From: an uncultured virus (IMG/VR IMGVR_UViG_3300032167_000100)
Lineage: Duplodnaviria; Heunggongvirae; Uroviricota; Caudoviricetes
Length of the DNA stretch: 64,000 nucleotides
Direction: 5' to 3' (one strand)
IMG/VR virus record: IMGVR_UViG_3300032167_000100
Of this stretch, positions 14,077 through 64,000 are shown in pieces (positions within the stretch are counted from its first letter, which is position 1; each line of letters opens with the position of its first letter). The notes beneath the pieces were generated by a model, which searched no databases, was not told the DNA's origin, and was given only the letters and a program-made list of their open reading frames with translations. Both the position numbers and the translations under genes were made by a program.

Positions 14077-14077
14077 G

Positions 14078-27888: not shown

Positions 27889-27889
27889 T

Positions 27890-30101: not shown

Positions 30102-30112
30102 CAAATCGAAAC

Positions 30113-30485: not shown

Positions 30486-30540
30486 GTTTATTCTCCTATA
30501 ATTTGATATTATCTCAATGTCAAGGAAAAAATAAAATCAT

Positions 30541-30570
30541 AGAGGGACCCTTTCGGATCCCTCTTTTTTT
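30541..30570. terminator. terminator-like hairpin after the RNAP gene
   Basis: AGAGGGA...TCCCTCT flanked by A and T tracts. Confidence 0.65.
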
Positions 30571-30577
30571 GATTTTA

Positions 30578-37409: not shown

Positions 37410-39146
37410 ATGTCAGATGTAGTCAACAGCGGAGTAGTTAAAACTCCCGATGCTATTTTAAAAGAAACCGCCGATTATCAGATCAACATTCCCTTTATGA
37501 AATCCTTCGTGGATACTTTCGTTGGTCTGAAAAAGAAATACGGCGAAAACCTTGCTACCCTTAACGGTCTTTCCGATAAGCAGCTTGGTTATACTCCTTT
37601 TATCGACAACTTCATCGATAAGAATACTACTGCAGATGCATCTATCGATGGTTCTGCAAACGTCTCGAATAAAGATATCGTAACTCTTGAAAGCGAGATG
37701 AGAAAGCCCCACAGTAAACTGATTGGCTTTAACAAAATCTACTACGAACTGGCTAAACAGTTCGGTTTAAAGGATGCTGATGCTTGGTTGCTCGGCGAGT
37801 GGATCGGTGACTATTATCTCCATGATGCTCACAACGCAACATTCAAATCCTACTGCTATAAGGGTGAGGAAATGCTGACCGTTAAATATAACGGAAAAGT
37901 TTATAATACAACATTTGCTGATCTTTATGAGCTTGTGGATGAAAAAGAAAGTTATGATGAAAGCATCAAGCAAAATGCTAAATTCCCAAGCGATCTGTAT
38001 GTATTGGATCTTGAGGATAAGAAAGAAGTATTCACAAAAGTTACACGTCTTGTAAAGCATACCAATAAACGTAAAATGCGTTTCATTAAGTATGCAAATG
38101 GTCTCAGCCAAATCGTAACTGACGACCATCCGATCATCACTAAAGATGGTGAAGTTCCGGCAAAGCATATAACAAAGGATCACAAGGTATACACAATCGC
38201 ACCTACGTATTTTACAAATACGATAAAAGAAATTGAGGTCGCTGATCGTCGATTCAAAATGTCGAGAAAATTTGGTTGGTTAGTCGGTCTCTGTCTCACT
38301 GAAGGAACTGCTATTCCCAGTAATATCTATGTGTCTCAGACATATAAGAGTCCGGTATGGCAGAAACTCGTAGATTTGCTCGACGAGTTCGATATTCCTT
38401 ATAAGCTGAAGTTTGTACATCCTGATGATGAATCGCCCAGAATTGTAAACCTGTTGGCTTCTCCGTTCCAGAAGTTCTTATCTAAGATTATGCTCGGTCA
38501 TACTTCGGAAGATTATCATCTTCCTCCCGAGTATATTCATTATAGTTATAAGTTCCTCGATGGTTTTGTTGCAGGTGTCATCGATGGTGATGGAACACTC
38601 GATGGTTATAAATCGAGACATTGTCAGATCAGAATTGCGTCTCAGCCGCTCGTTAACCAAATAACGAACTATCTCCGATTCCAAGGAATCTTTTGCTCGG
38701 CAAGAACGCCGCATAGATACTATTCAGAGAAGAGTTATGCTCAAAATCTTCTTTTGTATGGAGCATGCTTCACTCTTACAGATGAAGATTATTTCTCGAG
38801 CATTGGAAGCTATAAAATTGAAACGAAATATATTCCTAAAATTCGCAAAAAGGGAGATTTCAAAACCAAAGGTTATGAATACAAATATGGTTGGGTATCA
38901 ATCTTAGATAACTCTGAGTTTATTGATAAGTGTAATATTGTATATGATATTACTACCGAAACCGGTCATTTCCTCTGTAACAACATTTTGTCTCATAACT
39001 GTTTTGCTTACTCTCTTAAGCAGTTGGTAGAGAAAGGTCTTTATTGGATTAAGACTTTCAATAATCAGCCTCCTAAACATCTTTGTACTTTCACTGACTT
39101 CGTTGGTGAATTTATCTCTTATAACTGTAACAGAACTTCCGGAGCT
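37410..39146 (+). CDS. nrdD: anaerobic (class III) ribonucleotide reductase, exon 1, containing an intein
   Basis: YLHD, SY/CFAY around the intein, PKHL, ends NRTSGA. Confidence 0.9.
37854..38999 (+). mobile_element. intein (382 aa) with LAGLIDADG-type endonuclease
   Basis: Starts CYKGE; block B VTDDHP; LVGLCLTEG and FVAGVIDGDG; ends VYDITT...SHN before Cys. Confidence 0.93.
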
Positions 39147-39401
39147 AAACATTGACCGATGGCTCCTTTGGATGGTAACATCCTCAAAATAAACAATGTG
39201 AACCAGTACTTGCTGGGTGTCAGAAAAATCTGGCTAACGGTAGAAGCTCATATGTAATACCGTGCCAAGCTTACTATGTAAGAAGGTGTAACGACTATCC
39301 CGAAAGGGAGTAGGTTTTAGGTGAAATTCCTAATTCCCAAGTGCATTGCTCCTATGCAATCATAGGATGAAGATATAGTCTATTATATGCTATTAATATA
39401 G
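39147..39401 (+). mobile_element. group I intron 1 of nrdD, no ORF
   Basis: P1 GGAGCU/GGCUCC; AATACCGTG, TAACGACTA, GATATAGTC; ends in G; splicing gives RTSGA-VGLP. Confidence 0.9.
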
Positions 39402-39564
39402 GTCGGTCTCCCGAGCTTCTTGGTATATTCGTTCTATTTCTGGAAGAAAGACGTAGAAAATGGATACTACCTTGTAAGCCCCGAATATTACCGTGATCAA
39501 TCGTTCCAAGAAATCATCTATCGAATTAACGAGCCTTTCTTGAGAGACTCGATTCAAAGTGCGT
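39402..39564 (+). CDS. nrdD: nrdD exon 2 (163 nt, absent from the ORF track)
   Basis: VGLPSFLVYSFYFWKKD...INEPFLRDSIQSA. Confidence 0.9.
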
Positions 39565-39846
39565 AAACTTGTTGCGCCTATACACAGTGATGTGTATAGC
39601 AAACTAGGTTAATTGCTGGAAGGGTCAATGACCTAATCAGCAGCGAAGCTCCGTAAGGAGAACGTTCAACGACTATTCCTCGGACCTGAAATGGTCAATA
39701 GAAGTACGGCTCAAGTGAGTGGGTGAGATCCCCTTAAATGGAAATGCCTAGGATCTGGAAACAGATCGTGATATAGTCTCAACTTCTATAGTAATATAGA
39801 GCAGTCTAATGACGATGTAGATTAACGACCTACATGAAGATATTTG
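39565..39846 (+). mobile_element. group I intron 2 of nrdD, no ORF
   Basis: P1 GCGU/GCGC; same core motifs as the polymerase intron; ends in G; splicing gives QSAFTNF. Confidence 0.9.
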
Positions 39847-41120
39847 TTACAAATTTCACTATTTTCGATAGATACTACTTTGAGGCACTTTTCGGTGCAG
39901 ATCAGTATCCCGACGGAACTTACATCATTGACTACGAAGACGAGTTTATGGAATACCAGAAGAGATTTATGGAAGTCGTTTCTGCTATCCGTGAAGAGAA
40001 CATGATGACATATCCTGTTCTGTCTTACGCTCTTCTTAAGAAAAAGAATCCCAAGCATGCTCTCGATATGTTCGAAGATGCTGAGTTTGCAAGATGGTGT
40101 TCTGACCATAACTGCAACTGGACGGATTCCAACTTCTTCTCCGACACTGAAGTTACGAGTCTTTCTAATTGCTGCCGTCTGAAGAGTGACATTACTGATC
40201 CTTACTTCAACTCCATTGGCGGAACTGCACTTTCTGTTGGTTCCGTTAAGGTAAATACAATCAACCTCGCAAGAATTTCTTATGAGTGTGCTACTCCTGA
40301 AGAATATCTTGTTAAGCTTAAAGAAAAGACAATCATTTGTCTTAAGACCCTCCACGTGGTACGTCATATCATTCAGCGTAATGTAGATAAGGGACTTCTC
40401 CCGAACTACACTCTCAAGAATATTGATATTAAGAGCCAATACTCCACGATCGGCATTAATGGACTGTATGAAGCTATCCAGAAATACGGTTTCGTTGAGA
40501 AAGATGAATTTGGCTATTGTACCTATACGGAAGAAGGCATTAAGTTCGCTACAGATATCATGGAAGTACTTAAGAGCACTAAGGCAGAATTTGGTTCCGA
40601 TAAGGATTACATGATCAATATCGAGCAGATTCCTGGTGAGAAGGCTGCTTCTGTTCTCATGGCTAAGGACCAGATGTTCTTCCCCAACGAGAGATACGAA
40701 CTTCCTCTCTATGGAAACCAGTGGATTCCTCTTGGTGTTAAGACTACTATCGAAGAGAAGATCAGAGTATCTGCTATCCTCGACGAAGCTTGTTCCGGTG
40801 GATCCATTGCACATATCAATATCGAAGCACCTTTCGCAGATAAAGAGGAAGCATGGAAGGCACTTAACTATGTTGTAGGAAAGGGTGTAACCTACTTTGC
40901 ATTCACATCTAAGATCTGCACTTGTACTGACAACCATTCGTTCTTTGGAACTGTATGTCCTAAGTGTGGTGGTAAAGTTGCTACGAAGTGGCGTAGAATA
41001 GTTGGTTTCTATGTTCCTGAAATCACTTATTCAACTCCCCGTAAAGCTGAGGCTGATCTTCGTACAGACTTTGATCCCAAGGAATGGGAAGATGTCTTAG
41101 CTGGAGATGACTTCGTATGA
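39847..41120 (+). CDS. nrdD: nrdD exon 3
   Basis: TYPV, SNCCRL, TINL, EQIPGE, SGGSI, zinc ribbon, glycyl-radical loop RRIVGFY. Confidence 0.92.
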
Positions 41121-49949: not shown

Positions 49950-51461
49950 ATGCATTTAGATGAATTACCAAACATCGATGCTGAAAATACCGAAGTGAAA
50001 CCTGCCATATATAAGAAGAACGGTAAGAATGTCATCGTTACATTTGATAAGTGTTTTGAGCAAGATTCTCCTGATCTGAATAACTTTATTATTACCAAGT
50101 CGGCATATAGTAAGAATTTGGATTCTGTGTGTAGATATGCTAACACTTTCTTCAAGTTATATGACCCTGACAAAGAATTCTTAACTGGACTTCTTTGCAT
50201 CAAGTATCAGATCGATAACCAAAATATTCACTACTCATATAAGACATTCCTCAGTGATATTGCTGAGTTGCTCTTAACTGATAGTGTGATCGAGAAGATA
50301 TTTGAGATGGTTGAAGATTACTATTCTATCGACCTCAGTCCTAGTGACGAGGTTAAGGATATTGACCTTCACGCACTTCAGTTCTTAAATGAACATGGAA
50401 AAGCATTGATGGCATTGTCCATAGCATATAAGTTGACTATCCCTGTGGTATGTCACTATTACTATGTGAATAATGAACGAATGGCAGAGCTTGCGAGAAT
50501 TCGTGGTGAAAATGAAACCACCATTAAGGATTATCTTTATCAAGTTTTTGCTAGCTACTTCCCGCTCTTCCAGGGAGATTCCGAGCTCTTTAATAAGTTG
50601 GCAGTTACAGTAAACAGTCATCTTACTGAGACTCGTACATCCGATAAGACTCTTTGGAACAGAGCACGAAACAAGAAACTCACCCCAACCATTTATACTG
50701 ATAGATTGATTGCTGCTGTCGTGGTTGATCTTCTTCCGAAGGCTATCTTCAAGAAGAACTTCATCTTCCTCATTCAGGTAGCAGTCCCCTATCAGATTCG
50801 TCAAACATTGTTAGCCAAGGATAAATATGACTATTGTGATATTTCCACTAGTTCGAAGACTGATGAACTTAGCGGTCTTGAGAAACTCGAGGCTAATAAT
50901 GCCCGCATAAGTGACCTTGATATTGTTATCTCCTCGGTAAACATCAAGGAGACAATTAAGAAGATTGAGCGACGCTTTAAAGTACACATCGAACCAGATG
51001 AGATTGCTTATTACAAAGAGCATTTGAAGAGTTTCACATTCAGTGATACAATCCTTCAGTTCTTTGCTAAGTACTTCGGTGGTTATTATGATCTCAAGAC
51101 AATCAGTAAGAAATACTATATTCGTCTCATGATTATCTTTAAGAAAATTATGAAGAATATGGGATTCATCTACATCAACCAGATTATGACTGGTAACTTG
51201 AGTAAGACTATTAAGCGACGCAAGATCTCCACAAAGCAATTGAAGAAGATCGAACAGTCACCTAAATTCCAGAAGCTCATGAAACAGTATTCTATGGGAA
51301 TGGAAACTGAGAATAATCCTGTATTGAGAAATATAGCGATGCTCATTAATACGCCTATCGAGTATTGTGACTATGAGAATCCAGAAATGTACGGAATGCC
51401 TATTCAGGTTGATATTGATATTGCTGTGTCTGAATATTTGAGGTTTCTAAGTTTAATGTAA
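49950..51461 (+). CDS. probable non-virion RNAP promoter-specificity (sigma-like) subunit, AR9 gp226/phiKZ gp68-like
   Basis: 503-aa helical-looking ORF just downstream of the chaperonin, as gp226 lies near gp228 in AR9; inferred from size and synteny only. Confidence 0.5.
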   Translation: MHLDELPNIDAENTEVKPAIYKKNGKNVIVTFDKCFEQDSPDLNNFIITKSAYSKNLDSVCRYANTFFKLYDPDKEFLTGLLCIKYQIDNQNIHYSYKTFLSDIAELLLTDSVIEKIFEMVEDYYSIDLSPSDEVKDIDLHALQFLNEHGKALMALSIAYKLTIPVVCHYYYVNNERMAELARIRGENETTIKDYLYQVFASYFPLFQGDSELFNKLAVTVNSHLTETRTSDKTLWNRARNKKLTPTIYTDRLIAAVVVDLLPKAIFKKNFIFLIQVAVPYQIRQTLLAKDKYDYCDISTSSKTDELSGLEKLEANNARISDLDIVISSVNIKETIKKIERRFKVHIEPDEIAYYKEHLKSFTFSDTILQFFAKYFGGYYDLKTISKKYYIRLMIIFKKIMKNMGFIYINQIMTGNLSKTIKRRKISTKQLKKIEQSPKFQKLMKQYSMGMETENNPVLRNIAMLINTPIEYCDYENPEMYGMPIQVDIDIAVSEYLRFLSLM

Positions 51462-51465
51462 GATT

Positions 51466-51603
51466 ATGATTGCTGATATTATTTGGTATATCTTGGGTGG
51501 TCTCGGACTTGCAGCAATGGTTGCAGCCAGAATCTACGAGGTTGAAGAACAGCGGAGAAATGATAGACCTCCTAAAGATAAAGATGATAATACTCGATCT
51601 TAA
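51466..51603 (+). CDS. 45-aa single-pass membrane peptide
   Basis: MIADIIWYILGGLGLAAMVAAR...; below the ORF-track cutoff. Confidence 0.55.
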   Translation: MIADIIWYILGGLGLAAMVAARIYEVEEQRRNDRPPKDKDDNTRS

Positions 51604-51615
51604 ACGACAAATAAA

Positions 51616-51641
51616 GGAGATAGGCAGAAATGCCTATCTCC
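51616..51641. terminator. bidirectional terminator
   Basis: GGAGATAGGCA-GAAA-TGCCTATCTCC between convergent genes. Confidence 0.85.
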
Positions 51642-51670
51642 ATATTTTTATTTTTTAGTAAATAACTTGT

Positions 51671-51823
51671 CTCCGTCTAATAGATTTTCTCATACATATT
51701 GCATACATACTATCCTATATGTTACCGGAGTCAAGAGGGACCGCATATCCAATATAATATCAACTATCGACGAATATCATCTAATAGATATGCGGAATAT
51801 GAACCATGTGATTGCTAATCACA
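51671..51823 (-). ncRNA. structured 3' UTR or cis-element with three stem-loops
   Basis: Inverted repeats 51807-13/51817-23, 51741-49/51787-95 and 51671-75/51726-30; inner stems use G-U pairs on the minus strand. Confidence 0.5.
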
Positions 51824-51833
51824 AACTCATGAT

Positions 51834-54800
51834 CTACCTCTCAGATTTCAGCGCAAGCGCCGCGTTGAAGTATCTTGTTTGGTTTCTTTGCTTGGTTGAA
51901 AGCCCGAAGCAAACACCATGAATATAGAAAGCCGCATATGCGTTGCTCCATGTTTTACCATCTTTATCTATAACTGGTACATTATTATGAGTTACTAAAC
52001 CTCCTTGATACCAATATGGAATATTATCCGGAGTGCGAAGCCACCAGTATGTATAGTTAGGTGAGTCGTTGATGAGGAACTTCTTACGGACGGCAGTTCT
52101 GCCGCCGTTTGACGCAACACTCGGCTGGTAGAACTGATAAGCATCACCTTCATACATATATGGATCTGTAGCGTTATACATACCAGCCTCAGATAAGCTG
52201 TAAAGGAACATCTTATCTTTGGTCTCATTAATGACTTTGTGCAAGCCACCAATGTTGGTATATTTCAGTACAGTTTCGGATACTTGCTTTACTTCATCGG
52301 GAAGTGCATTGAAGTGTGCACCGTTACCGTTAGTACGAGCAATACAATCTCTCCAACCAGTAAGGTTCCAAGAGTTGTAGTAAGATATATCGACAGTATT
52401 ACCAGCACTTACAGGAATACCGATTCTTGCTCCTCTTGTCAGACACAAACATTCAGAAGCTTCATCACGGACGATTTCACCCAGAGTTGCATCAAAGTAA
52501 AGAGCAGTCGACGGATCGGGTGTCTCGGCACCATCGAAATATCCAGTTACGAGAGAATCATTAACAGTTCCGTTATATTTTCTCTTCGCAATCTTACCAC
52601 CGTATTGGGTATTAACAGGAAGGTTTACATAGTTAGCTGTAGTAGAAGAGTTGAAGTTGAAACCTGTTACAGTTGCACCTCTGGTAACTTTGATCGAAGA
52701 GATACAAGTCGTACCATTTGCAACCAACCACAGAATATCAGCATCTGCACCAGCGGGATGAGTATAGGATGCGAGGTTGTTAGTTGCCTCACCGTAGTCA
52801 GAGAGACCAACATACATATCCTTCATTCCATGAGAAGCAGAATACAACTGCGATTTTTCAGGTAACAAATCCTTCATTCCGAATGTCATAGGACATACAC
52901 CCATGTCTTCGGATTTATCTGTGAAGAGACCGACCAATTCCCACCACATGTTGGGAAGACCAGTTCCTTCAGTAACTTCTGCACCACCGTTACAGTTCGA
53001 GTAAGAAGATCCGGTAGGATATTCAAGCTTGGTATGCTTACATTCACCAACCTGAATCCACTTCTCAGTAACAACACCTTCACCTCTATCAATATCGAGA
53101 GAAAGCTTAGCGTTATAAGGCGTAGAGGTAGTACAGTCAGATGTATCGAGATATCCTTCTCTACCAAGAGCAGCGAGCTCATACCAAGTAAGGTTACAGA
53201 GTCTGTCATCCATATTGTAAGCAGTACGGGTTACGTTCTCTGTATCAAGGTCGAGACGGATTCGATAAGTCTCATACTTCCATCTGGGAGGAAGTAGGAA
53301 GAGTCTGATACCGGTACCATCCTGGAGATAACCGAGCTTAGTATTCAGATGAGCCTGAAGGACTTCATCATTTGTAAGTGCGGCACCAGAAGGATAGCTT
53401 ACAGCATCATAGTATTTATAAGCTTTATTGTAGTACTCAAGCTTAGTGAGAACTACACCAGCTTCATCTACATTAAAGGAATCAAGACCGTAGCCGGTAG
53501 AATGCTTATAACCGAAATCGAAGCGATTAAACTCAACTCTATCCTCGATAAGAATGAGAGAGTTAGCAACGATTTCATCACTAGCAGTTCCACGGATTAT
53601 AATCGTATACTCTACGTTCGGTTGTACGTTTCTTGTGAGTACACAGTTTCCTGCGTAAAGAACGTTTTCCGAGATAAAGATCTTGAATCCATTTGTATGG
53701 TTAGAGGGAGAAGCATCGAGAACCATATACATACCAGATGCACCAGTATGTCTGAATCTACAGAGAAGTGTATATTCATCGTTTCTGGTTCTGAAAGTCT
53801 TCAGGTTATAACCATGGATAGGAAGAGAAACTTCCTGAATATGGTCAGACGAGGAGATATCGAGTTCCTGAAGCGAGTTACAAGAGTCGAGATAAAGTGC
53901 AGAAACGTTACTACACTCATCGAATGCACCTGCAGCGATAGACTCAATAGACGCCGGAATAACGCTGAAGTTAACCTTGTCACAGTTATAGAATGCCCTC
54001 TCACCGATTTCTTTAATTCCGGAAGGAAGCTCACTGATAGAGAGGTTGGAACAACCTTCGAAGCAGGACCTACCAATTACCTTAAGACTATCAGGAAGTC
54101 TGAAGTCTTTGATAACAGTATTACCTTTGAAGCAAGCTTCTTCAAATTCATCGATCGAACAACCATCCGTAAAGCTCATGTCTTCACAGTGACTGAAGAA
54201 ATATTGTGCATCAGCATTCGTGTCCATGTTAAAGACGTCAGGACCGATCGCAACAATGTGACCTTCGGTACCAGTACTATTGATATAAGTAGGACCGAAC
54301 ATGAAGATTTCCGGAGGCTGAAGACTTTTATTTTTGATAAGATTAGAGTAGTCGACGAGCTTAAATCCGATTTGACCTTCGCCAAGATCTACCTCGTCAA
54401 ATGTGAAGTATGTGTCATAGTCTCTACCTTTGGTAGGTTCATATGCCATAAGCTTCTGAATAGAGAACTGAAGTGCTCCCCAACCATTCTCATAACCATT
54501 AGAAGGTACATAGGCATTAGACAAGCCGCTGTAGAATCTAAAGTTAAGGATAGACGATGCACCGCAATCCTCAAACGCATCTACTGCGATAGATGTATTT
54601 CCAGCTACACCAGACAAACCGGTACCGTTAGCTGCAGAACCGAAAGAAAGGCTTCCAACAATTCCCACACAACCAGCGAATGCTCGTTTACCGATAGATG
54701 TTACCGATGCAGGGATATAGCTGAGTGTCATATTTGTACAGGTATCAAATGCATGATCAGGAATAGTTACAAGTCTATTTGAGATCGTTGCCATTCTCAT

Positions 54801-56996
54801 TGCAGTACAGCTCATGAATGCTTTCGCACCGATTTCAGTTACTGTATTAGGAAGAGCGGCAAAACGAACGTTGTAACAGCCTTCAAATGCAGATTCTCCG
54901 ATACGAACAATATTCTCAGGGAATGCAGAGAATGTGACATTGACACAAGACTTAAAGGTACCAGCATTAATAGCCTGAATATTCGGAGGGAATATCGAGA
55001 AGGTTACATTCAAACAAGAGTAGAATGCATACTCTCCAATCGATGTAATTCCATTAGGCAAGCTATCAAAAGAAACTTTCTTACACTCATAGAATGCGTT
55101 TGCCCCGATCTCAGTAAGAGTCGAAGGAAGTTCATCGAATTCTACGTTTGCACAGTTCTTAAATGCGTTGGCACCAATTTTGGTAGTACCAGTAATGAAG
55201 TTAGAGAATGTAACAAGAGTACATCCCTCATAGACTCCATCGGGGATAATTGTCATTCCGGAAGGAAGTTCACTAAATGTTACTTTAGCACATCCACTGA
55301 AGCATTCTGCAGGGAGAGTTGTCAAGCTTTCCGGAAGTTCAGAAAGGGTAATATTAGCACATCCCTTAAAACACGCATCTCCAAGAGATGCCAAAGTAGC
55401 AGGAAGACTAGCCAATTTAATAGCAGCACAGTTAGTGAAACCATGGCTACCGATTGTAGTCAGTCCTGAAGGAAGTGTGCTCAGACTGATCTTGTTACAC
55501 TCATTGAATGCATAATCGGGAATAGCTGTCAGTACAGAAGGAATTCTGGTAGCTTCCCAATTATTACATCCGTCGAAGCAGTGAGCTCCGATAGTTGTAA
55601 CAGTATCAGGAATATCAAAGTTTTCCAAGTTAGTACAACCATAGAAAGCATATGCACCGTAGGTAGTGATATCTTCGGTAATGATAATACTTTCAAGCTG
55701 TTCACAACCAGAGAATGCACCAGCTCCAATTTCACCGGACAGAATTGTTATATTTCTCAATCCTGCAGGCATATAGAAGCTGTGCACGTCGCCGTCTCCA
55801 TCGCCATATTTCTGATTAACTACGATAGTAGGCTTATCGCCTGTACCGTACTGATTGGTCGAGAAAATACGACCGAACAGAGCATCAGCAACAGTTGACG
55901 GGTCGATATGTCTTCCGACGAAAGGCAACTGCAAGCTTACAAGTGAATACAAACCACTGAGAAGATTCTCGGGAAGCTGAACGATACCTTTAGGAAGGCT
56001 GAGGCTTTCCATATTGATAGCACCAGTAAAGATAGCAGTATCAGCGATGGTATACTCAGGTTTAGCCTGAGAAGTTCCTCTGTCGTATGCAGCAAAGTAT
56101 TCATCAAAGTGAGCGTTGATCAGATATGCGTTCTTAGCAACGTTACCAAGCAAGAATGCACCATTGTTTAAGTTCCAAGGACCTCTTGCAATGAACGAAA
56201 TTGTATATTCGCCGGGGTTGTAAATATGAGTCAAAGATTCACCAACAATAGGACTTCCGTCTTCGGCAACACCACCACAAACCTGAGAAGTTCCATCACC
56301 CCAGATGACAGTCATGATACTATCATCGTACTTCTGTACATTGATGGTTACCTCAAATTCACCGGCTGTTGTCTTCTTAATGTCAAAGTGTGTGAATCCA
56401 GATCCAGTACTCATCTTCTCATACTCGGACTGAGTAATAATAAGGTGAGCATAATTTTGCCAGTTCGGTGCACTTGTATATGCAGTACGAACTGTGTTAC
56501 CTACCGAGTCAGGGACAACAAAGATACGGTCTGCACTATTCTCTTCGAATGTGTTCATACCGATCTCGGGAGGAGTAGTTCTTGTCATAAGGACGAATTT
56601 AATACCCTTACAACCATAGAAAGCGTAATCCTGAATGATTTCCACTGAATCGGGGATGGATACTCTTTGAATATCCGTATTCATGCTAAAAGCATGGGTT
56701 CCGATAACGGTAACAGGAAGATCGCCGTTATCGTAGTATTTAGGAATACCGAGCAAGGTCTGACCTTCGAATGCTGTCGTATATCCGTTTCCGGCACTAT
56801 TTGTACCTTTACCTACACGATAGCGGGAAATATCAGAACCAGAAGCAGCGGCATTGCTCGCATTCAGACCATCATACACAAGACCTTTTGAACCGGAGTA
56901 GTACAATCTATTTCTATATGTAGTTCCCCATGTATTGTGATCGAGGTAATCATAGTACTGAGAATACGGGACAAATATTTTTCCCTGATTCTTCAT
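51834..56996 (-). CDS. BspA-type LRR protein with C-terminal WWLRTP...GVCFG (DUF6273/C-type-lectin-like) domain; putative receptor-binding protein
   Basis: Many IGxxAFxxCxxL repeats, WGDG PKD-like motif, DKMFLYSLSE, WWLRTP, GVCFG; AGGAGG RBS. Confidence 0.85.
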   Translation of the reverse strand: MKNQGKIFVPYSQYYDYLDHNTWGTTYRNRLYYSGSKGLVYDGLNASNAAASGSDISRYRVGKGTNSAGNGYTTAFEGQTLLGIPKYYDNGDLPVTVIGTHAFSMNTDIQRVSIPDSVEIIQDYAFYGCKGIKFVLMTRTTPPEIGMNTFEENSADRIFVVPDSVGNTVRTAYTSAPNWQNYAHLIITQSEYEKMSTGSGFTHFDIKKTTAGEFEVTINVQKYDDSIMTVIWGDGTSQVCGGVAEDGSPIVGESLTHIYNPGEYTISFIARGPWNLNNGAFLLGNVAKNAYLINAHFDEYFAAYDRGTSQAKPEYTIADTAIFTGAINMESLSLPKGIVQLPENLLSGLYSLVSLQLPFVGRHIDPSTVADALFGRIFSTNQYGTGDKPTIVVNQKYGDGDGDVHSFYMPAGLRNITILSGEIGAGAFSGCEQLESIIITEDITTYGAYAFYGCTNLENFDIPDTVTTIGAHCFDGCNNWEATRIPSVLTAIPDYAFNECNKISLSTLPSGLTTIGSHGFTNCAAIKLASLPATLASLGDACFKGCANITLSELPESLTTLPAECFSGCAKVTFSELPSGMTIIPDGVYEGCTLVTFSNFITGTTKIGANAFKNCANVEFDELPSTLTEIGANAFYECKKVSFDSLPNGITSIGEYAFYSCLNVTFSIFPPNIQAINAGTFKSCVNVTFSAFPENIVRIGESAFEGCYNVRFAALPNTVTEIGAKAFMSCTAMRMATISNRLVTIPDHAFDTCTNMTLSYIPASVTSIGKRAFAGCVGIVGSLSFGSAANGTGLSGVAGNTSIAVDAFEDCGASSILNFRFYSGLSNAYVPSNGYENGWGALQFSIQKLMAYEPTKGRDYDTYFTFDEVDLGEGQIGFKLVDYSNLIKNKSLQPPEIFMFGPTYINSTGTEGHIVAIGPDVFNMDTNADAQYFFSHCEDMSFTDGCSIDEFEEACFKGNTVIKDFRLPDSLKVIGRSCFEGCSNLSISELPSGIKEIGERAFYNCDKVNFSVIPASIESIAAGAFDECSNVSALYLDSCNSLQELDISSSDHIQEVSLPIHGYNLKTFRTRNDEYTLLCRFRHTGASGMYMVLDASPSNHTNGFKIFISENVLYAGNCVLTRNVQPNVEYTIIIRGTASDEIVANSLILIEDRVEFNRFDFGYKHSTGYGLDSFNVDEAGVVLTKLEYYNKAYKYYDAVSYPSGAALTNDEVLQAHLNTKLGYLQDGTGIRLFLLPPRWKYETYRIRLDLDTENVTRTAYNMDDRLCNLTWYELAALGREGYLDTSDCTTSTPYNAKLSLDIDRGEGVVTEKWIQVGECKHTKLEYPTGSSYSNCNGGAEVTEGTGLPNMWWELVGLFTDKSEDMGVCPMTFGMKDLLPEKSQLYSASHGMKDMYVGLSDYGEATNNLASYTHPAGADADILWLVANGTTCISSIKVTRGATVTGFNFNSSTTANYVNLPVNTQYGGKIAKRKYNGTVNDSLVTGYFDGAETPDPSTALYFDATLGEIVRDEASECLCLTRGARIGIPVSAGNTVDISYYNSWNLTGWRDCIARTNGNGAHFNALPDEVKQVSETVLKYTNIGGLHKVINETKDKMFLYSLSEAGMYNATDPYMYEGDAYQFYQPSVASNGGRTAVRKKFLINDSPNYTYWWLRTPDNIPYWYQGGLVTHNNVPVIDKDGKTWSNAYAAFYIHGVCFGLSTKQRNQTRYFNAALALKSER
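51912..52034 (-). other. variable-loop (expression) site matching the cassette boundaries
   Basis: ACT CCG ... CAT GGT GTT, 41 codons: TPDNIPYWYQGGLVTHNNVPVIDKDGKTWSNAYAAFYIHGV. Confidence 0.75.
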
Positions 56997-57068: not shown

Positions 57069-60000
57069 TTAGAAAGTCGTGCTCGTTACGCTAGGTATTG
57101 CATCAGTATCCAGAATTACTCTATAGAGTTCATTACAGCTATTGAATGCATTTGCACCAAGCGATTGGATCTTTTCGAGCGTTACGTTAGGAAGCGAGCT
57201 ACATCCGGCAAATGCGCCACTCTGAATTTCTTCAACGTTGTTAAGGTTGATATATTCCAGATGTGAACAGTAAGCGAATGCATTCGAACCAATTACAGTA
57301 ACAGATTTAGGCAGGTTTACAGCAACCATTTCTGCATTACTACAGTTGGTCATGAAGTTATTACCCACCTTGGTATATTTGCTCAGATACATGCCAGGGA
57401 GAGAGATCGTCTTCATACCAGTAGCGCCATAGAACATATTTGCTCCGTAGTCTTCAATATGCTCATCAAGGATGGCAGAATTGATACGAGAGTTGTAGCT
57501 CTGGCTACCGAGAATATAAGTACCGCACTTCCAATTGCCTCTGTTGACAATCTTGATAGTAAAGGTATTCTTCTCACTAGTATCGTAAAGACAATGCTTA
57601 GGTTCTCCGACATATTCACCGTCAACAGTAGCTATAGTATAGTTATATCTCATCTCCTGCTTACCATCTGCATTTGTATATACCCAAGTATTATACTCTG
57701 CATTAGTAAGTACATAACGGTTATGATTATAATTCTTCTCATACTGATCGGAATGTGTACGGTTTGCTCTGTTGAACTGAACGCCAACACCGAGAATCTT
57801 GCCATTACCATCCACTGCCCTATCGACAGGAATGTTGCCTTCAGCATCGGGTTCGCCACAGTAAGAAGTCCACGAATAAGTTCCATCACCCCAAATGATC
57901 GTAGTCAATTCAGGTTTGTAGATGGTTTCTTCGTGACCAGTTGTATTATTAAATTTGGTAACCGGTGTCGGATACTTGGTAATTGAAATACCAAAGTTGT
58001 CATTCATATTAACAGTTACCTCAAGAGTAGTGATACCACTCTCAAAATCATCCTTATCAATGATAAAGATCTCATAAGTTGACCAGTTGGTAGCATTTAC
58101 GAAGTTAGGTGTTGCGTCCTTAGGAACGACAAAGAGTCTATCATAAGCATTATTTTCAAATGCATCGATATTAACCATAGCAACGTTGCTACCCATACTT
58201 GCACTCATATTAACTGTCGAAAGAGATGTACAACCGTAAAAGGCTTTGCTACCAATCGAATTGACACCAATACCGATATCTGCACTTGTAAGTCTTTCAG
58301 ATCCTTCAAATGCCGAAGTACCAATGGTCTCAACGGCTGCAGGAATCTTGATACTGGTAAGTCCACACTGATAGAATGCTTTATTACCAATAGACTTACA
58401 GGTCTCAGGGATTGCAAGAGTTTGAGTTCTTACTCCCGCAAATGCAGAAGGTCCGATACTCAAGAGGTTAGATCCCATCTCAAAGCTAATCGAGTAGGGA
58501 AGGTTATTTCCAGTAGGTGCTACGCCATAGAATGCATTAGGACCAATATAGTCCACACTTGCAGGAATTACGAATCCACCAGTTCCGGTATTATCCGTAA
58601 AGTTTACAAGGTTAGTACATCCATAGAAGCACTCTTCAGGAATAGATTCAATTGTATTAGCAAGACGAATACCAGAGAGGTTAGCACACATATAGAAGGA
58701 TCTCTCACCAAGTTCAGCAAGTTCACCCTCAAACTTAAGGTTAGCATTCGAGCATCTCCAGAACATATCGTCTGTTACCTGAACGATAACAAAGCTGATA
58801 GTTGCCGAAGCGAGTCCTGCCGCACCGTAGAATGCGTGGTCTCCGATACGAGTCAAAGCGGTGGTAAATGCAAACTTCGAATTCTTTACACCATAACAAG
58901 CATAAGGTCTTACGATAGTTGTGTTACCATTGATTATGATCTGGCTTGTGTTGGACTTACCCATAGGATATGCAACAAGTTCAGTGTAAGAATTAGCATA
59001 CAAGATACCATCTACACTATTGAACTTAGCATTACCTGTACAAGCGATAGAATTCAGCTTGGGAGGTGTTCCAATATAGTTACCATTTGCATCCAGCTCA
59101 GAGATCATGAATGCACGATCATAAATAGTTTTAACGTTCTGGGTAATAGCGATCTGTTCCATATTTACACAACCCTTGAAGCAGTCGTAGTAAATACCAA
59201 CAGTGGACTCAGCAAGAGTATTGTTCGCAACATCGGGATCAACCGTAGAGATAGCCCAGAGATACTGGTTTGTCGAGTTGCCGAGGTACTTGATATTACC
59301 AGAAGTATTATATTGAATTGCAGTATTTTTAAGAGCGTCTACACCGATTTCTTCAAGAGATGCAGGAACTGCAAGTGTGGCAAGGTTGGCACATCCGTTG
59401 AATACCGAATCACCAATAGATACAACACCGGCAGGAAGTTCTACACTAGTCAAGCTAGAGCATGCAGCGAATGCACCGGCTCCAACGTTACGAAGTGTAA
59501 TAGCAAAACTCAATCCATTAATGGTAGAAAGTCCAGTACAGTTAGCAAATGCACCAACACCAATATCAGAAATCGGGCAGTTGCCGTCGATTGTAAAGGT
59601 CTGGAGACTTGCAATGTTCTGGAATGCACCGAACGGAATGCGTTCTGTCTTAAGCAGATGAATCTCTCTGATCGAGCTAGGAATATAGTATTCCTCAAAC
59701 TCGGTCTCATTGAAGTATTGAGTTGTAGGTGCGATATTAGATTCCTTCATAAGATCAACGTAATCTCTGTTATAAACCATGATGTTGTCATCGTTCATAA
59801 TCGAAGTGATTACATAAGGTGTCGATCCATTCGGGAAGGTATAGTAAGTTTCTTTATAGGTAGCTCCCTCAGTGATTTCAACGATAGTGTCATAGCCCTG
59901 AGATGCAACAGAGTTACGGATGTAGATGCTACTTCCGCTAGGTCCTGCTACAAACTTGAGCATGTTTACCATTACAGGAACTTCAGGCGTTCCAGTGTTA

Positions 60001-63000
60001 ACATCGACAGACATAATAGTTGTCTCTGTACCATAAGAAATGGCTTTTTCTGTATCAAAGAAGATGGTCTTTCCAGTAAGATTATCACCAACCTTAACAG
60101 AGTCAGGGTTGATCTGATAACCGAAGAAGTATCCGAATACAGAGTCATATGTCTTATTAGAGTCTTTAGTTCTGCCGACATAGGGAACTTTCATGATTTG
60201 AATTGCGTTACATTTATTGAATACAAAGTCGCCGATATACTCTACCGATACAGGAAGAGCAACCGTTGTAATATTCTGGCAGTTATAGAATGCGTAGTCT
60301 TCGAGTCTCTTAAGTCCCTCATTAAAGGTAACCGTTCCAACACCGCAGTTAGCAAATGCATAAGACTGGATAATCTCTGCACCAGTGCCAAGTACCACAG
60401 TATTGACAGCACTACAGTTCTCAAAGACAGATTCCTCGATAACTTTTACGTTATTAGGAATAGTAACCGTACCAGCAATAGCTGTACCCTTGAAGGCTTT
60501 GCTATTGATATACTTTGTATTAGACGACGCTTCCATCGTCAAATTTGTAAGAGTTATAATGCCTTCACAAGCAGATTCTGCAATAAGCAGAGTGCTGCTG
60601 TCAACGGGAAGTCTGGTAGTTCCACTCTCAACACAGAGGAGATACTTACCATTGTTAGAATCAAGATAGAGTGCCTTACCGCCACCGGTGGATACCCAGT
60701 GTTTATCAGTAGTATGAGTAGCAGCCTCTTCATAAGTACCAGCAAATGCAGTACCATTAAAGACAGTCTTACCCGTACCGATATATTCAAGGTCAATACC
60801 GTTTGCAAGAGTTACCGTTGCAAGATTCCTACATCCGTTAAATGCACCAGCATTAATTCTCTTTGTAGATCTTGGAATAGTAATTTCGGTGAGATTTTCA
60901 CAACCGCCAAATGCACTCAAACCGATTTCACGGAGAGAGCCAGGAAGCGTGATATTTTCAGCTGTGCTAGACTGGAATGCATAGCTACCGATTACCTCAG
61001 TCTTAGAAACACTGCCCCAGTTGATATCCATCCTCGAGTTAGCAAATGCATGCTCTTCAATGGTTACCAAGCTATCAGGGATATTTCTTTCTCTGGGTTG
61101 GCAGTTAACTTTCATATATTCACTTGCACAGTTATTGAATGCGTACTTACCAATATTTGTAATAGTCGGGTTACCCGTCCACATGATAGTGGCAGTACAG
61201 TTGTTAAATACATTCTCACCAAGATGCTTTACAGAGTCAGGGATTTCAATTGTCTGCAGGTCGGTACATCCAGAGAATACTTCGTTTCCGATATATTCAA
61301 CTTCAGAACCGGTTTCAAAGTAGACAGCAGTTACACCTCTACCACCAGCAAACATCGAGCTGAAGAGTCTATCTCCCAGAGCCTTGATCGGAATACCATC
61401 AATAGCCTTAGGAATAACGAGCTCAGTATTTCCAGTCTCAGTAAATGCAGATTCGACTTTCGTCAATTTATAGGAAAGCGGGTTTCCATTACCGTCGCTC
61501 TCATAAGCCTCGTAACCATCCTTATAGAATGCAGGGTTCAGAGGAGCAGAGGTATAACCCGAGATAAAGTGTGAATAGATACATTCGTTCTTAGAAATGC
61601 TCGGAACCACAGGAGACCAGTGGGAGAACATAAGGTTACCATTAGTAGGATACTCAGGGTTGTTATATTCAGGCATATCACCTTCATCAACGAACTCTGT
61701 ATAGATATCCTCATAACCGATAATATGACAAGTGAAATTATCAGTAGAACAGATCTGGTTATTAACGATGATCTGTGCACCACTTGCGTCATACCAGTAA
61801 CCGGTAGATTGAGCGTCAGCAGGAGGCTGTGCTCTGATACCATCGGAAGAGGTATAAACGATGTTGCCATTGTTATCTTTAAGAACGACTTTGTGAGTTA
61901 CAGAAGAGTACATAGCAAGTGTATTATCCGCATTACGGATCCACATGTCATATGTAGCAATTCTCTTATAACGGTTATTTACACCGTCTGTCTGCACATA
62001 TCGGATATGACCTTGGTCATTATATTCCTCAAGTGCAAGATAGTAGTCAGAAGGCGAGTAAGAGGTGATAGCACCATCTACACACCAGTAACTAGAGACG
62101 AGAGATGCTTTAATCTCAACAGAGTCAGTAATTACAGGAGCATTGTCACCTTCAATAGGTTGGTTAGTGTTTGTAGCCAACAGAACAGGGCGGAACATCG
62201 ACTTGTTGATATTATTAGCTCCATTACCAAATGTATCGGTAAGAAGCTCGCAATACCAAGTAGCATCGCCTTCCTCAGCCACGGTACGAACTACTTCCTG
62301 GATATATCCATTGGCACCTGTGGTACCTTCAACCTGAACGTCGGTTGCATTTGTTTTATAGTAGGTTGCATAGAAGAAGTTTGCAGATTCACCAAAAGTA
62401 AATCTAAGAGAACCATCGGCAATGTAGCTTGCCCAGTAGTCAGTCCAAAGCTCTTGGTTAACCTTCGAGACATTATTAACGATGATACTACCAGTAAGTA
62501 CACACTTATCGATTTCTCCACCAGCTTCGGTCAAACCTCCACAAGCCATGAGTTTATTAAGAACATCCTTACCATCAAGTACCCAGTTGACATTAATCAG
62601 ACGAGCATACTTGAGGTTAGTTGCCTTCATTACCAGTTCAGGAATCTCAATACCTGCAACATCCTGGAGATACAGGTGAGTCAGGTTACTGTAATCCTCG
62701 AGACTCAAGTTCTCGATATACTTCTGGTTCTGAAGTTTGAGAGTTGTGATAGATCTAGGAAGCTTCATAACTCTAAGAGATCCGCCGTTAGGAACCAAGA
62801 TCGAAGGAACGTTGGTACCAACTGCATAGATTTCCTGAATATTTGTGCATCCGGTCATATCGATAGAACCTGTGAGTGCATCGCAGTTACTAATGTCAAA
62901 CTTCTGGAGAAGCGGCAGGTTAATAGTGGACATATACTCAGAGGTCAGGTAAGAGTTAGTGTATCCCTCACGAGAAGAACCGATGATAAGGTCCTTAAGC

Positions 63001-64000
63001 AAGGTTGCATAGCGGAAGTCAGGCTTACTAGGATAGAGATGAGAGATATCTCCGATAGAAGAGATATTATTAGATCCGAAGACCTTAAACACGATATCCT
63101 GCATGATACCTGCTGCACTAGGCTTGATAGTAATGGTTTCACCTGCTCTACACTTACCACCATAGTACGTACCAGCAGAGTTACCATATTCACAATATTG
63201 ATACTGGGTAGTGGAAGGTGTTACGTTAATAGCGATTTCATCGGGTGTAACGTAAACATTCGTACCCTTGTTGATACGGAAAGAAATATTGTTAGCAAGG
63301 TACTGAGGAGAGATGTATTTCGAATCCAAGAAACTAATACGCTTCTCAACGAACCAGAGCTTATGATACTTCTTAGAACCTTGACAGAGGTACTGATAAA
63401 TGGATGTAAAGATATCAGATTGAGTCGTAATATCATAGTATCCATCAGTAAAGATATCAAGGTATTTGAATCTTTGGTCTTCATTATATACGACAGGAGG
63501 AAGAGTTTCAACACCCTTAGTCATATACTCATTAAACATGATCTCAGGAGAGAGCAATGTCTTTGTAGAGTCACGAAGAGTATTCCAACGAGCCTTAATT
63601 TCAGCACCGAAAGCATCCTCAACCATGCACCAGAATACAGAACCTTCACCGTTGAAGCAGTAGGTAGGGTTACCATCTGCGTCGTAAGCATAGATATCAT
63701 GAATCTCGACGTCATAGTTATAGATGTTACGACCGTTGTTATCAACGCCTCCGCAAGAGTCCATATCGTAAAGCGAAGTATACCAAATCGGGAAAATCGA
63801 ATTCTCCCAGTCAATTAAGTTAAAGTTAAACTCGCCAGTGTCAGCATTAATACAGTCACGAACGGAAGAAATAGATCCGGAAGTAAACCTGATATTTACC
63901 TCACTGAGTGCTTTTGCTTCTGTAGTATCTTTGCCTTCTGTTCTATACTGTGCATATCTATTCGTGTCATGATATACATCATAGCAGGACATGAACATGT
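57069..64000 (-). CDS. giant BspA-type LRR protein with CotH-kinase-like N-proximal region (probably 5'-truncated by the window)
   Basis: At least 2309 aa; YDMDS.GG.DN.G and FLDSKY motifs, many IGxxAF repeats, WGDG motif. Confidence 0.8.
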   Translation of the reverse strand, partial: MFMSCYDVYHDTNRYAQYRTEGKDTTEAKALSEVNIRFTSGSISSVRDCINADTGEFNFNLIDWENSIFPIWYTSLYDMDSCGGVDNNGRNIYNYDVEIHDIYAYDADGNPTYCFNGEGSVFWCMVEDAFGAEIKARWNTLRDSTKTLLSPEIMFNEYMTKGVETLPPVVYNEDQRFKYLDIFTDGYYDITTQSDIFTSIYQYLCQGSKKYHKLWFVEKRISFLDSKYISPQYLANNISFRINKGTNVYVTPDEIAINVTPSTTQYQYCEYGNSAGTYYGGKCRAGETITIKPSAAGIMQDIVFKVFGSNNISSIGDISHLYPSKPDFRYATLLKDLIIGSSREGYTNSYLTSEYMSTINLPLLQKFDISNCDALTGSIDMTGCTNIQEIYAVGTNVPSILVPNGGSLRVMKLPRSITTLKLQNQKYIENLSLEDYSNLTHLYLQDVAGIEIPELVMKATNLKYARLINVNWVLDGKDVLNKLMACGGLTEAGGEIDKCVLTGSIIVNNVSKVNQELWTDYWASYIADGSLRFTFGESANFFYATYYKTNATDVQVEGTTGANGYIQEVVRTVAEEGDATWYCELLTDTFGNGANNINKSMFRPVLLATNTNQPIEGDNAPVITDSVEIKASLVSSYWCVDGAITSYSPSDYYLALEEYNDQGHIRYVQTDGVNNRYKRIATYDMWIRNADNTLAMYSSVTHKVVLKDNNGNIVYTSSDGIRAQPPADAQSTGYWYDASGAQIIVNNQICSTDNFTCHIIGYEDIYTEFVDEGDMPEYNNPEYPTNGNLMFSHWSPVVPSISKNECIYSHFISGYTSAPLNPAFYKDGYEAYESDGNGNPLSYKLTKVESAFTETGNTELVIPKAIDGIPIKALGDRLFSSMFAGGRGVTAVYFETGSEVEYIGNEVFSGCTDLQTIEIPDSVKHLGENVFNNCTATIMWTGNPTITNIGKYAFNNCASEYMKVNCQPRERNIPDSLVTIEEHAFANSRMDINWGSVSKTEVIGSYAFQSSTAENITLPGSLREIGLSAFGGCENLTEITIPRSTKRINAGAFNGCRNLATVTLANGIDLEYIGTGKTVFNGTAFAGTYEEAATHTTDKHWVSTGGGKALYLDSNNGKYLLCVESGTTRLPVDSSTLLIAESACEGIITLTNLTMEASSNTKYINSKAFKGTAIAGTVTIPNNVKVIEESVFENCSAVNTVVLGTGAEIIQSYAFANCGVGTVTFNEGLKRLEDYAFYNCQNITTVALPVSVEYIGDFVFNKCNAIQIMKVPYVGRTKDSNKTYDSVFGYFFGYQINPDSVKVGDNLTGKTIFFDTEKAISYGTETTIMSVDVNTGTPEVPVMVNMLKFVAGPSGSSIYIRNSVASQGYDTIVEITEGATYKETYYTFPNGSTPYVITSIMNDDNIMVYNRDYVDLMKESNIAPTTQYFNETEFEEYYIPSSIREIHLLKTERIPFGAFQNIASLQTFTIDGNCPISDIGVGAFANCTGLSTINGLSFAITLRNVGAGAFAACSSLTSVELPAGVVSIGDSVFNGCANLATLAVPASLEEIGVDALKNTAIQYNTSGNIKYLGNSTNQYLWAISTVDPDVANNTLAESTVGIYYDCFKGCVNMEQIAITQNVKTIYDRAFMISELDANGNYIGTPPKLNSIACTGNAKFNSVDGILYANSYTELVAYPMGKSNTSQIIINGNTTIVRPYACYGVKNSKFAFTTALTRIGDHAFYGAAGLASATISFVIVQVTDDMFWRCSNANLKFEGELAELGERSFYMCANLSGIRLANTIESIPEECFYGCTNLVNFTDNTGTGGFVIPASVDYIGPNAFYGVAPTGNNLPYSISFEMGSNLLSIGPSAFAGVRTQTLAIPETCKSIGNKAFYQCGLTSIKIPAAVETIGTSAFEGSERLTSADIGIGVNSIGSKAFYGCTSLSTVNMSASMGSNVAMVNIDAFENNAYDRLFVVPKDATPNFVNATNWSTYEIFIIDKDDFESGITTLEVTVNMNDNFGISITKYPTPVTKFNNTTGHEETIYKPELTTIIWGDGTYSWTSYCGEPDAEGNIPVDRAVDGNGKILGVGVQFNRANRTHSDQYEKNYNHNRYVLTNAEYNTWVYTNADGKQEMRYNYTIATVDGEYVGEPKHCLYDTSEKNTFTIKIVNRGNWKCGTYILGSQSYNSRINSAILDEHIEDYGANMFYGATGMKTISLPGMYLSKYTKVGNNFMTNCSNAEMVAVNLPKSVTVIGSNAFAYCSHLEYINLNNVEEIQSGAFAGCSSLPNVTLEKIQSLGANAFNSCNELYRVILDTDAIPSVTSTTF

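Follow-up and report, generated by a model that had tools for sequence, protein, structure and literature searches.

The stretch of DNA considered here, called the window throughout, is the whole 64,000-nucleotide (nt) IMG/VR record IMGVR_UViG_3300032167_000100 from an uncultured virus of the Caudoviricetes, and the system in question is a variable loop at the end of one of its genes together with arrays of alternative versions of that loop. The window encodes a split multisubunit RNA polymerase, GroEL, NrdD, thymidylate synthase, and an SbcC-like protein, contains group I introns, and is part of a giant gut phage. Two other IMG/VR contigs, G001 (115,036 nt) and G002 (183,293 nt), belong with it: G001 equals window positions 1-32720 at 99.98% identity, G002 equals G001 at 99.99% across 82 kb, and these identities indicate that the three records represent one phage lineage. 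The window and G002 together cover at least 247 kb. The stretch between the window end and the G002 start is unsampled, so that more arrays may exist than those described below.

The target loop and the cassette arrays

The target gene occupies positions 51834-56996 on the minus strand and encodes P0001, a 1720-aa BspA-type leucine-rich-repeat (LRR) protein that is a presumed receptor-binding tail protein. In Pfam searches, P0001 matches LRR_5 (E 7.8e-123) and, at its C-terminus, DUF6273 (PF19789; residues 1544-1671, E 3.5e-9). Passages of two papers (PMC10743442; bioRxiv 10.1101/2024.10.15.618418) describe DUF6273 as a C-type-lectin-like domain and a target of diversity-generating retroelements (DGRs), and a passage of the second places the variable region at the C-terminus of the domain. 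The family match, read with these passages, indicates that P0001 ends in a C-type-lectin-like domain of a kind targeted by DGRs, and the DGR-type lectin domain that a preliminary description of the locus had recognized here is confirmed by the profile search.

The last loop of the DUF6273 domain, named loop D, lies at 51912-52034 on the minus strand. It is 123 nt long, reads ACTCC...CATGGTGTT, and comprises 41 codons from TP to GV (translation TPDNIPYWYQGGLVTHNNVPVIDKDGKTWSNAYAAFYIHGV) between the neighbours ...NYTYWWLR and CFGLSTKQ.... The ACTCC start and the length stand as first described, and the end quoted at that time, CATGGTGTTTG, extends 2 nt beyond 51912 on this strand. The replaceable segment proper is 51920-52029, from ACTCC to ATGG. 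Its 5′ junction motif, ACTCC (52030-52034, minus strand), encodes the Thr-Pro of WWLRTP, and these five letters are the only ones that a sequence logo shows as invariant in all 109 cassettes introduced below. The 3′ side is formed by a 17-nt boundary box, ATGGTGTTTGCTTCGGG (51903-51919, minus strand), which codes for GVCFG and resembles the initiation of mutagenic homing (IMH) element of DGRs. An inverted repeat, TTTGCTT-13 nt-AAGCAAA (51887-51913, minus strand), stands just past the junction. Database homologues of P0001 keep the flanks and carry different loops; loops of six kinds, 34-40 residues long, occur between invariant WWLR and VCFGL flanks.

Alternative versions of the loop are stored in arrays. 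A chain scan for ACTCC in the window and G002 gave eight arrays with 109 cassettes, which is a lower bound. Array W lies in the window on the plus strand (27890-29991, 20 cassettes; full span 27890-30115), is inverted relative to the target gene, and consists of units of the form ACTCC...(A)TGG(TGT) followed by 0-10 nt of filler. The other seven arrays are in G002: arrays a (21,780-23,316, 14 cassettes), f (30,276-30,621, 4 cassettes), and c (144,491-145,656, 11 cassettes) on the plus strand, and arrays e (115,988-113,963, 18 cassettes), b (89,621-87,146, 23 cassettes), g (71,626-70,298, 13 cassettes), and h (51,527-50,970, 6 cassettes) on the minus strand. The whole window has 36 copies of ACTCC on the plus strand and 19 on the minus strand; 20 of the plus-strand copies fall within 2.2 kb and 16 in the remaining 61.8 kb. 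The spacing of ACTCC in array W is 96-123 nt (n = 20), and its upper limit equals the length of loop D. The earlier remark that loop D is identical to none of the 20 cassettes in the window also holds, its match being a cassette of another array.

All 20 units of array W are open in the ACTCC frame, and each reaches a Gly codon that falls inside a 3-7-nt match to CATGGTGTTTG of the target. Over all arrays, the first 96 nt are stop-free in this frame in 107 of 109 cassettes, compared with 16 and 3 cassettes in the remaining frames, an openness far beyond chance. In-frame stops occur in two cassettes, c6 (G002 145,055) and g8 (70,825). The unit that follows e2 (G002 ~115,765) begins with AGTCC (Ser-Pro) and is hence absent from the ACTCC motif scan. 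The base after ACTCC in the 109 cassettes is A in 73, T in 24, G in 12, and C in none, a bias that probably reflects codon usage (avoidance of CCC) rather than a signal.

The 3′ ends of the cassettes carry the second point of contact with the target. In array W these ends match CATGGTGTTTGCTTCGGG over 4-7 nt by our own scoring; the preliminary description had given 3-7 nt, and the register that it reported is correct. Over all arrays the runs measure 3-10 nt, and the best match to CATGGTGTTTGCTTCGGG is in the correct frame in 88 of 100 internal cassettes, compared with 33% of 5000 shuffled tails. The distal part of the box, GCTTCGGG, is absent from all cassettes, so that a cassette alone has no homology to the target on its 3′ side.

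Adjacent cassettes are often mutually out of frame, and blastn detected two alignable pairs among the 68 tested. Since only ACTCC is invariant, the ACTCC frame is open, neighbours are out of frame, and few cassettes are alignable, the arrays qualify as neither gene nor ordinary repeat and constitute a bank of promoterless, translatable loop versions that are unrelated to one another. Tandem Repeats Finder reported nothing at array W and a repeat search reported one two-copy repeat there (D8), listings that are nearly blank because the units have only 5 nt in common. This also separates the arrays from clustered regularly interspaced short palindromic repeat (CRISPR) arrays, whose direct repeats exceed 20 nt.

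With regard to the surroundings of the arrays, a terminator-like hairpin with a T-run (27854-27889, plus strand), recognized by reading the sequence, ends an upstream virion-protein gene, and array W begins 0-1 nt later. Arrays b and c likewise begin directly after a terminator-like hairpin, while three of the eight (a, e, and h) follow a divergent gene. No common leader or trailer of the arrays was found. Arrays W, a, and b adjoin genes for multisubunit RNA polymerase subunits (window 30578-32701; G002 19,626-20,993, 23,680-24,924, and 89,971-91,539), a proximity that may be due to chance or may have a bearing on array transcription. A 269-aa open reading frame (ORF) upstream of array c (G002 143,628-144,437) has a weak MazF/PemK-like N-terminus (phrog_1936, 3.8e-4; PF02452, 0.0045). 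Its product is a candidate for a sequence-specific RNase, with array RNA as a possible substrate and ACUCC as a possible cleavage site; the profile matches are weak, and a single-sequence AlphaFold model has a mean confidence score (pLDDT) of 38.

A blastn search of the array region against the GenBank phage collection gave zero matches. An exact-anchor scan of metagenomes returned six loci, all from unrelated phages and with short C-terminal ends (...AAAACEI* or ...APVCNII*), which by their sequence look like ordinary DGR targets. A scan of viral contigs for 15 nt of the box returned 49 loci, 46 of them chance matches and three from the phage studied.

Replacement of the loop by copies of single cassettes

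When loop D was compared with 68 cassettes by blastn, a10 alone covered it (121 of 123 nt); six other rows had lengths of 10-14 nt, one of them belonging to W20. Loop D equals a10 (G002 22,836-22,956) at 120 of 121 nt, and beyond ACTCC...CATGGTG the two show no similarity. A second loop, Q, equals e2 (G002 115,878-115,768) at 110 of 111 nt, with the identity stopping at ATGGT. In both pairs the identity starts exactly at ACTCC. The two differences in these same-lineage pairs, one C-to-T and one A-to-T, affect one of 76 cassette adenines and one other base, and adenine mutagenesis is therefore not the cause of the variation, which agrees with the inference of the preliminary description.

The same relation holds for all six distinct loops, each of which has one outstanding cassette with a score of 113-228, compared with 34-61 for the next best. 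The assignments are a10 for loop D of P0001 (score 228), e2 for loop Q of P0129 (201), c6 for the loop of P0124 (113), a9 for that of P0125 (171), W9 for that of P0126 (122), and W1 for that of P0127 (129), so that four arrays are represented. P0124-P0126 are 84-94% identical to P0001, and P0127 is a fragment. Relatives at this level of identity keep orthologous cassettes (W1, W9, a9, and c6), and P0128 corresponds to a10.

Population data were taken from Logan contigs of four public runs, three of them possible sources of the window and one from another study, which were compared with window positions 51300-52700. In the run contigs, common flanks fork to loop D and loop Q, the forks lying exactly at 52030/52034 and 51914/51919. 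The runs also contain the array copy of D next to its array neighbours (loose ends being compared by eye); one base distinguishes it from the site copy, and this is the base that also differs in G002. Because donor and copy coexist in the runs, the transfer is non-reciprocal. Furthermore, a 486-nt contig of run X7 consists of 53 nt of loop Q and 433 nt of adjoining gene body, so that the target gene occurs with Q besides D.

A second copy of the site, referred to as site B, is found in G002 (ACTCC at 100,819), the copy in the target gene being site A. The 56 nt upstream (52035-52090, minus strand) are identical at the two sites. About 77 nt downstream match with four mismatches; the downstream flank held in common (51843-51902, minus strand) has its mismatches at 51879, 51878, 51868, and 51855, and the sites diverge beyond 51842, shortly before the stop codon of the target gene (51834-51836). 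A 61-nt unitig (52030-52090) is common to both sites and then forks into the gene body or the sequence upstream of site B. The inverted repeat past the junction is present at both sites, and its hairpin is predicted to fold there with weak z-scores (−1.6 at site A and −1.4 at site B).

Site B in G002 carries loop Q, which has 37 residues (TP...G). G001 begins inside site B, which holds loop D there, and the two genomes are otherwise 99.99% identical. The arrays are unchanged between records: W is 100% identical in the window and G001, and c is unchanged between G001 and G002. Site B is probably unexpressed, and since it has been rewritten too, targeting is set by the local flanks and not by selection on the protein. 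The assumption that sites A and B always carry the same loop was not maintained; in run X3, junction depths of 6.3 and ~10.8, at a genome depth of ~10-11 (contig depths being rough), agree with the presence of one D and one Q in each genome.

The site is thus an acceptor, or expression, site, at which the whole loop is replaced, with a change of length, by a copy of one cassette. The copying is non-reciprocal, precise at ACTCC on the 5′ side, and resolves on the 3′ side within a 3-10-nt in-register match to ATGGTGTTTGC. The replacement is programmed and acts at any copy of the flanks. Replacement of whole loops with length change, which the preliminary description had proposed from one loop, is directly seen in six loops, each with its own cassette.

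Two readings give the arrays a different role. If related co-infecting phages exchanged old alleles by homologous recombination, the loops would be those alleles and the arrays decayed remnants or fossils. The flanks of the site, conserved over 56 and ~77 nt and into the gene body, would suffice for such exchange, and two loops coexist in the same samples. This reading is nevertheless improbable. Loops equal cassettes of the same record at 120 of 121 and 110 of 111 nt, with identity that ends sharply at the micro-motifs, and all six loops have array counterparts, from four arrays. In addition, 107 of 109 cassettes are open in the junction frame despite their out-of-frame neighbours, which points to selection as donors and not to decay. 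The other reading makes the arrays archives that were written from the site. Their ragged 3′ ends and filler letters do look like junctions left by template jumping or by untemplated addition, but records with different loops at the site have identical arrays, orthologous cassettes are retained in relatives at 84-94% identity, and the loops are too dissimilar to have originated from one mutagenized template. We consider an archive very improbable.

A DGR-derived module and its possible role

G002 contains the components of a DGR. A reverse transcriptase (RT) gene (G002 105,545-106,648) encodes P0002, which matches RVT_1 (2.4e-20) and has the motifs FGAPFSQ and RYVDD, in agreement with the [LIVF]GxxxSQ and YxDD signatures of DGR-clade RTs. 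P0002 is divergent: its nearest database relatives are 27-35% identical, and close relatives in IMG/VR were found in G001 and G002 only. At seven alignment columns in which 35 relatives are invariant it has a different residue, with S206A and Q207P of motif 4 among the changes; these changes fit altered RT properties and do not prove them. The ORF just upstream of the RT encodes P0003 (164 aa), an Avd homologue (HHalign 98.2%, E 4.1e-14 against 22 ORFs in the Avd position of classical relatives; phrog_3206, ‘Avd protein of DGR’, E 0.0021; no Pfam match), so that an Avd stands beside the RT as in DGRs.

The third component is an RT-2 scaffold RNA (G002 105,308-105,508; Rfam RF03077, full length, 90.8 bits with a gathering threshold of 40), which is located in the interval between the template slot and the RT. 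The loci of P0002 relatives in IMG/VR allow its position to be compared. In 66 of 80 such loci there is a pair of template repeat (TR) and variable repeat (VR) in which TR adenines account for at least 80% of the mismatches, the TR lying 220-370 nt upstream of the RT, and these 66 loci are classical DGRs. The RT-2 family occurs between the TR and the RT start in all eight classical relatives checked; its start is 1-10 nt from the end of the blast-detected TR match in seven (one overlapping by 3 nt) and 97 nt from it in the eighth. Because it is positioned right behind the TR in these relatives, RT-2 is regarded as the counterpart of the Sp scaffold that a passage of PMC6182149 describes for BPP-1.

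The part of the module that departs from the classical form is the template slot. This TR-sized segment (G002 105,120-105,307) shares with the target only ATGGTGTTTGCTTCGGG, which is followed by ATTCAAC in the slot and by CTTTCAAC in the target. The exact copy of the box lies at G002 105,248-105,264 (17 of 17 nt; E 1e-4 by blast, in a small comparison). The box is orthologous to the ...GVCFGF end of the VR and TR in the classical relatives, where both repeats end in letters coding for GVCFGF. The difference between site GGGCTT and slot GGGATT likewise has its parallel in five of seven classical relatives, with GGCTT in the VR and GGATT in the TR. The inverted repeat of sites A and B is not present in the slot, and the slot copy is predicted to be unfolded. 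Neither the slot nor the RT-2 RNA contains an ACTCC or GGAGT able to pair with cassette ends.

Mutagenic retrohoming from a template repeat, that is, a classical DGR, has in its favour the DGR-clade RT, the Avd, and the RT-2 RNA, as well as a target domain, DUF6273, that is usual for DGRs. A weak ‘mini-TR’ may also be read, in which slot CGA ACT AAG and site CGC ACT CCG differ at slot adenines only. That such a mechanism explains the loop variation is extremely improbable all the same. The slot lacks the loop: blastn (word size 7, E ≤ 1e-3) found no match of the slot or the region upstream of the RT to loops or sites in G002 or the window past the 17-nt box. The loops are of 34-40 residues and mutually unalignable, and the adenines of donor and site are nearly unchanged (one difference in 76). 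The ‘mini-TR’ reading of the slot (CGA ACT AAG ... GGT GTT TGC), for which a rough estimate gives a chance of ~0.04-0.1, was not relied on. The preliminary description had named an RT with a classical template repeat elsewhere as an alternative cause of the variation; such an RT is indeed present elsewhere in the genome, and in place of the template repeat only the 17-nt box was found.

The copying is on balance probably carried out by this DGR-derived module of the phage itself, working as a faithful, cassette-templated loop replacer. Complementary DNA (cDNA) synthesis would be primed on an RNA comprising avd, the template slot, and the RT-2 scaffold, and the 17-nt box would be copied first. 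The RT would then switch template to a cassette transcript at a microhomology and copy the cassette faithfully, without adenine mutagenesis, as far as ACUCC, after which the cDNA would be resolved into the target at ACTCC, perhaps via a second switch onto target sequence. In this scheme the slot would supply the box, which is the homology that cassettes lack; the ragged, in-register 3-10-nt matches of the cassettes would reflect the requirement for a switch from slot RNA to cassette RNA; and ACUCC would serve as the exit mark. The outcome would be library-based switching of receptor specificity in place of mutagenic diversification. For the wider proposal, that in one DGR lineage a mutagenic copier has become a faithful copy-choice assembler with a stub template, a jump to any of at least 109 cassette RNAs, and an exit at ACUCC, the case appears about evenly balanced. 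The ‘dedicated enzyme or guide’ invoked in the preliminary description would then most likely be the RT/Avd/RNA module, and the system is best viewed as a derivative of DGRs and not, as had been supposed, as an alternative to them.

Several points weigh against this account of the copying. Array transcription, template switching, and RT activity are all assumptions of the account. In a passage of PMC6182149, the adenine infidelity of bRT-Avd is described as intrinsic and its processivity as restricted to the DGR RNA; because one of 76 adenines differs here, the RT must either have changed its properties or not be the copier. The arrays have no scaffold RNA, leader, or trailer of their own (an Rfam scan for RT-2 gave no match in them at E ≤ 1), and read-through transcription cannot serve all of them, since a, e, and h follow a divergent gene. 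Only 5 nt define the 5′ junction, and the hairpin is statistically weak. Finally, the array system and a DGR-type RT are linked in one phage lineage only, with an array within 10 kb at 0 of 80 related loci. In that scan, no array-like chain within 10 kb of the 80 RT loci was real, GC-rich matches being Ala-rich coding sequence; this blank says little because the arrays of the phage itself are mostly more than 10 kb from its RT.

Some of these points would be accommodated by microhomology-mediated gene conversion independent of the RT, in which phage enzymes repair a break or stalled fork with a cassette as the DNA template, either by synthesis-dependent annealing or through a DNA polymerase that switches template. 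ACTCC and ATGGTG would be the microhomologies, and the DGR module would be a relic or otherwise used. The adenine-faithful transfer, which is unlike that of any characterized DGR (PMC6182149), would be natural in such a process, and so would the lack of an RT-2 scaffold in the arrays and the retention of the donor; the phage moreover encodes SbcC-like, RusA, and PD-(D/E)XK nucleases, helicases, and a ligase. However, known recombination-dependent repair is efficient only with homologies far longer than the 5 nt and 3-10 nt available here, and neither the in-register matches of cassette 3′ ends to the box nor the retention of an intact Avd, RT-2 RNA, and RT, together with a slot holding the exact 3′ boundary box, would be explained. 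No dedicated nuclease or recombinase was found beside the site or the arrays, although many ORFs are without any family assignment. In particular, integrase, resolvase, and transposase families were detected in none of 139 of the 146 G002 ORFs of at least 100 aa (the seven omitted comprise ORFs located in arrays, an overlapping ORF, and an ORF that extends past the contig end), nor in 52 window ORFs searched with PHROGs, 30 of them also with Pfam. We regard gene conversion of this kind as a serious competitor that is rather unlikely.

The position of the DGR-derived module relative to the target gene may be affected by a rearrangement. The site region of ~255 nt is present in two inverted copies (window 51834-52090; G002 100,763-101,499). 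In the window the gene body is joined to A-type downstream sequence, ending ALKSER*, while in the relatives P0124-P0127 it continues into a site-B-type extension of 156 aa (...CRYLDKFA), the frame of which is still open in G002. This pattern suggests an inversion between the two site copies, either fixed or flipping. Joining the gene body to the site-B-type downstream sequence, as in the relatives, puts the target ~3 kb upstream of avd, and the B-type junction thereby restores the classical synteny of target, avd, TR, and RT. The ORF right after the RT (G002 106,638-107,387) matches the tail-fibre family phrog_1348 (4.7e-8), which places the module in a tail-gene neighbourhood.

Relation to known systems and neighbouring features

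A few loops of receptor-binding proteins determine which hosts a phage can infect, and to our knowledge programmed variation of these loops proceeds either by DGR adenine mutagenesis or by inversion switches with a handful of alternatives. The present system resembles canonical DGRs, such as mtd-avd-TR-brt of BPP-1 and the DUF6273 DGRs of gut phages, in having a DGR-clade RT, an Avd, an RT-2 RNA between slot and RT, a C-lectin-like DUF6273 target that varies at its end, and a 3′ boundary element common to target and template slot, with C in the VR and A in the TR. The inverted repeat at sites A and B, with its weak z-scores, resembles the target-side hairpin/inverted repeat that a passage of PMC3240598 describes for BPP-1. 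Unlike in canonical DGRs, there is no template repeat over the variable region, and the information comes from at least 109 dispersed cassettes, which have 5 nt plus 3-10 nt in common with the target; whole loops of differing length are exchanged, with no adenine-specific change.

Antigenic-variation systems such as pilE/pilS of Neisseria and vlsE/vls of Borrelia are similar in that one expressed locus receives non-reciprocal copies from many promoterless, start-less, in-frame cassettes, with the donor retained. In those systems, conversion is homologous, depends on RecA or RuvAB, proceeds via conserved blocks or 17-bp repeats, and usually transfers mosaic segments. The phage system differs in that cassettes are mutually unalignable, the homology is limited to 5 nt plus 3-10 nt, and loops are whole-cassette copies in which ACTCC alone is invariant, without extended homology or segmental mosaics; moreover, the carrier is a lytic-type giant phage with an RT module attached.

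Switching of tail fibres by site-specific inversion is known from the Gin/G segment of Mu, Cin of P1, and the R64 shufflon. Common to these and the present system is that alternative receptor-binding ends are stored in the genome, and array W has the opposite orientation to the target gene. In contrast to the 2-7 alternatives of inversion switches, 109 are stored here and are copied, not reciprocally inverted; the scanned ORFs contain no invertase or recombinase family, and no inverted-repeat crossover site or other repeat at unit borders exceeds 5 nt.

Template switching is known for group II intron-type and non-LTR (long terminal repeat) RTs, for retroviral copy-choice, and for the discontinuous synthesis of coronaviruses guided by transcription-regulating sequences. 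These polymerases are mechanistic analogues only, which share short in-register microhomologies at the junctions and, in the case proposed here, the joining of a leader-like slot box to one of many bodies. A literature search did not find programmed template switching that rewrites a DNA gene from a cassette bank, nor, judged at abstract level, a description of cassette banks feeding a DGR-type target.

In the phage studied, a pre-made library of more than 100 loops, varied in length and unrelated in sequence, is written singly into a fixed scaffold, and this writing is visible in natural populations. If the proposed reading is true, it would be a new route by which a virus alters what it binds, the first DGR that does not mutagenize, and the first system of cassette switching driven by an RT, in which the cassette-bank logic of antigenic variation is joined to retrohoming. 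Should the DGR-derived module be the writer, DGR RTs would be able to evolve high fidelity and programmed template switching, which would widen the roles of retroelements. The system would also point to a natural tool with which members of a defined library could be placed at a site that only short flanks define. DGR surveys that rely on TR/VR pairs will miss such systems.

Some other features of the phage genome were recorded. A second giant BspA-LRR gene (57069-63998, minus strand; >2309 aa) extends past the window edge; a DUF6273 end and a WWLR site were looked for in it, and neither was found. Group I introns (Rfam RF00028, 86 and 89 bits) are located at 35855-36102 and 39555-39801 of the window, where they interrupt DNA polymerase ORFs (34440-35936 and 36138-36800) and NrdD ORFs (37410-39155 and 39834-41120), respectively, and at least ten similar copies are present in G001 and G002. 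The window ORFs at 13567-14076 and 13955-14929 both end in a treble-clef zinc finger (PF13451), with a related DNA repeat at 13926 and 14782.

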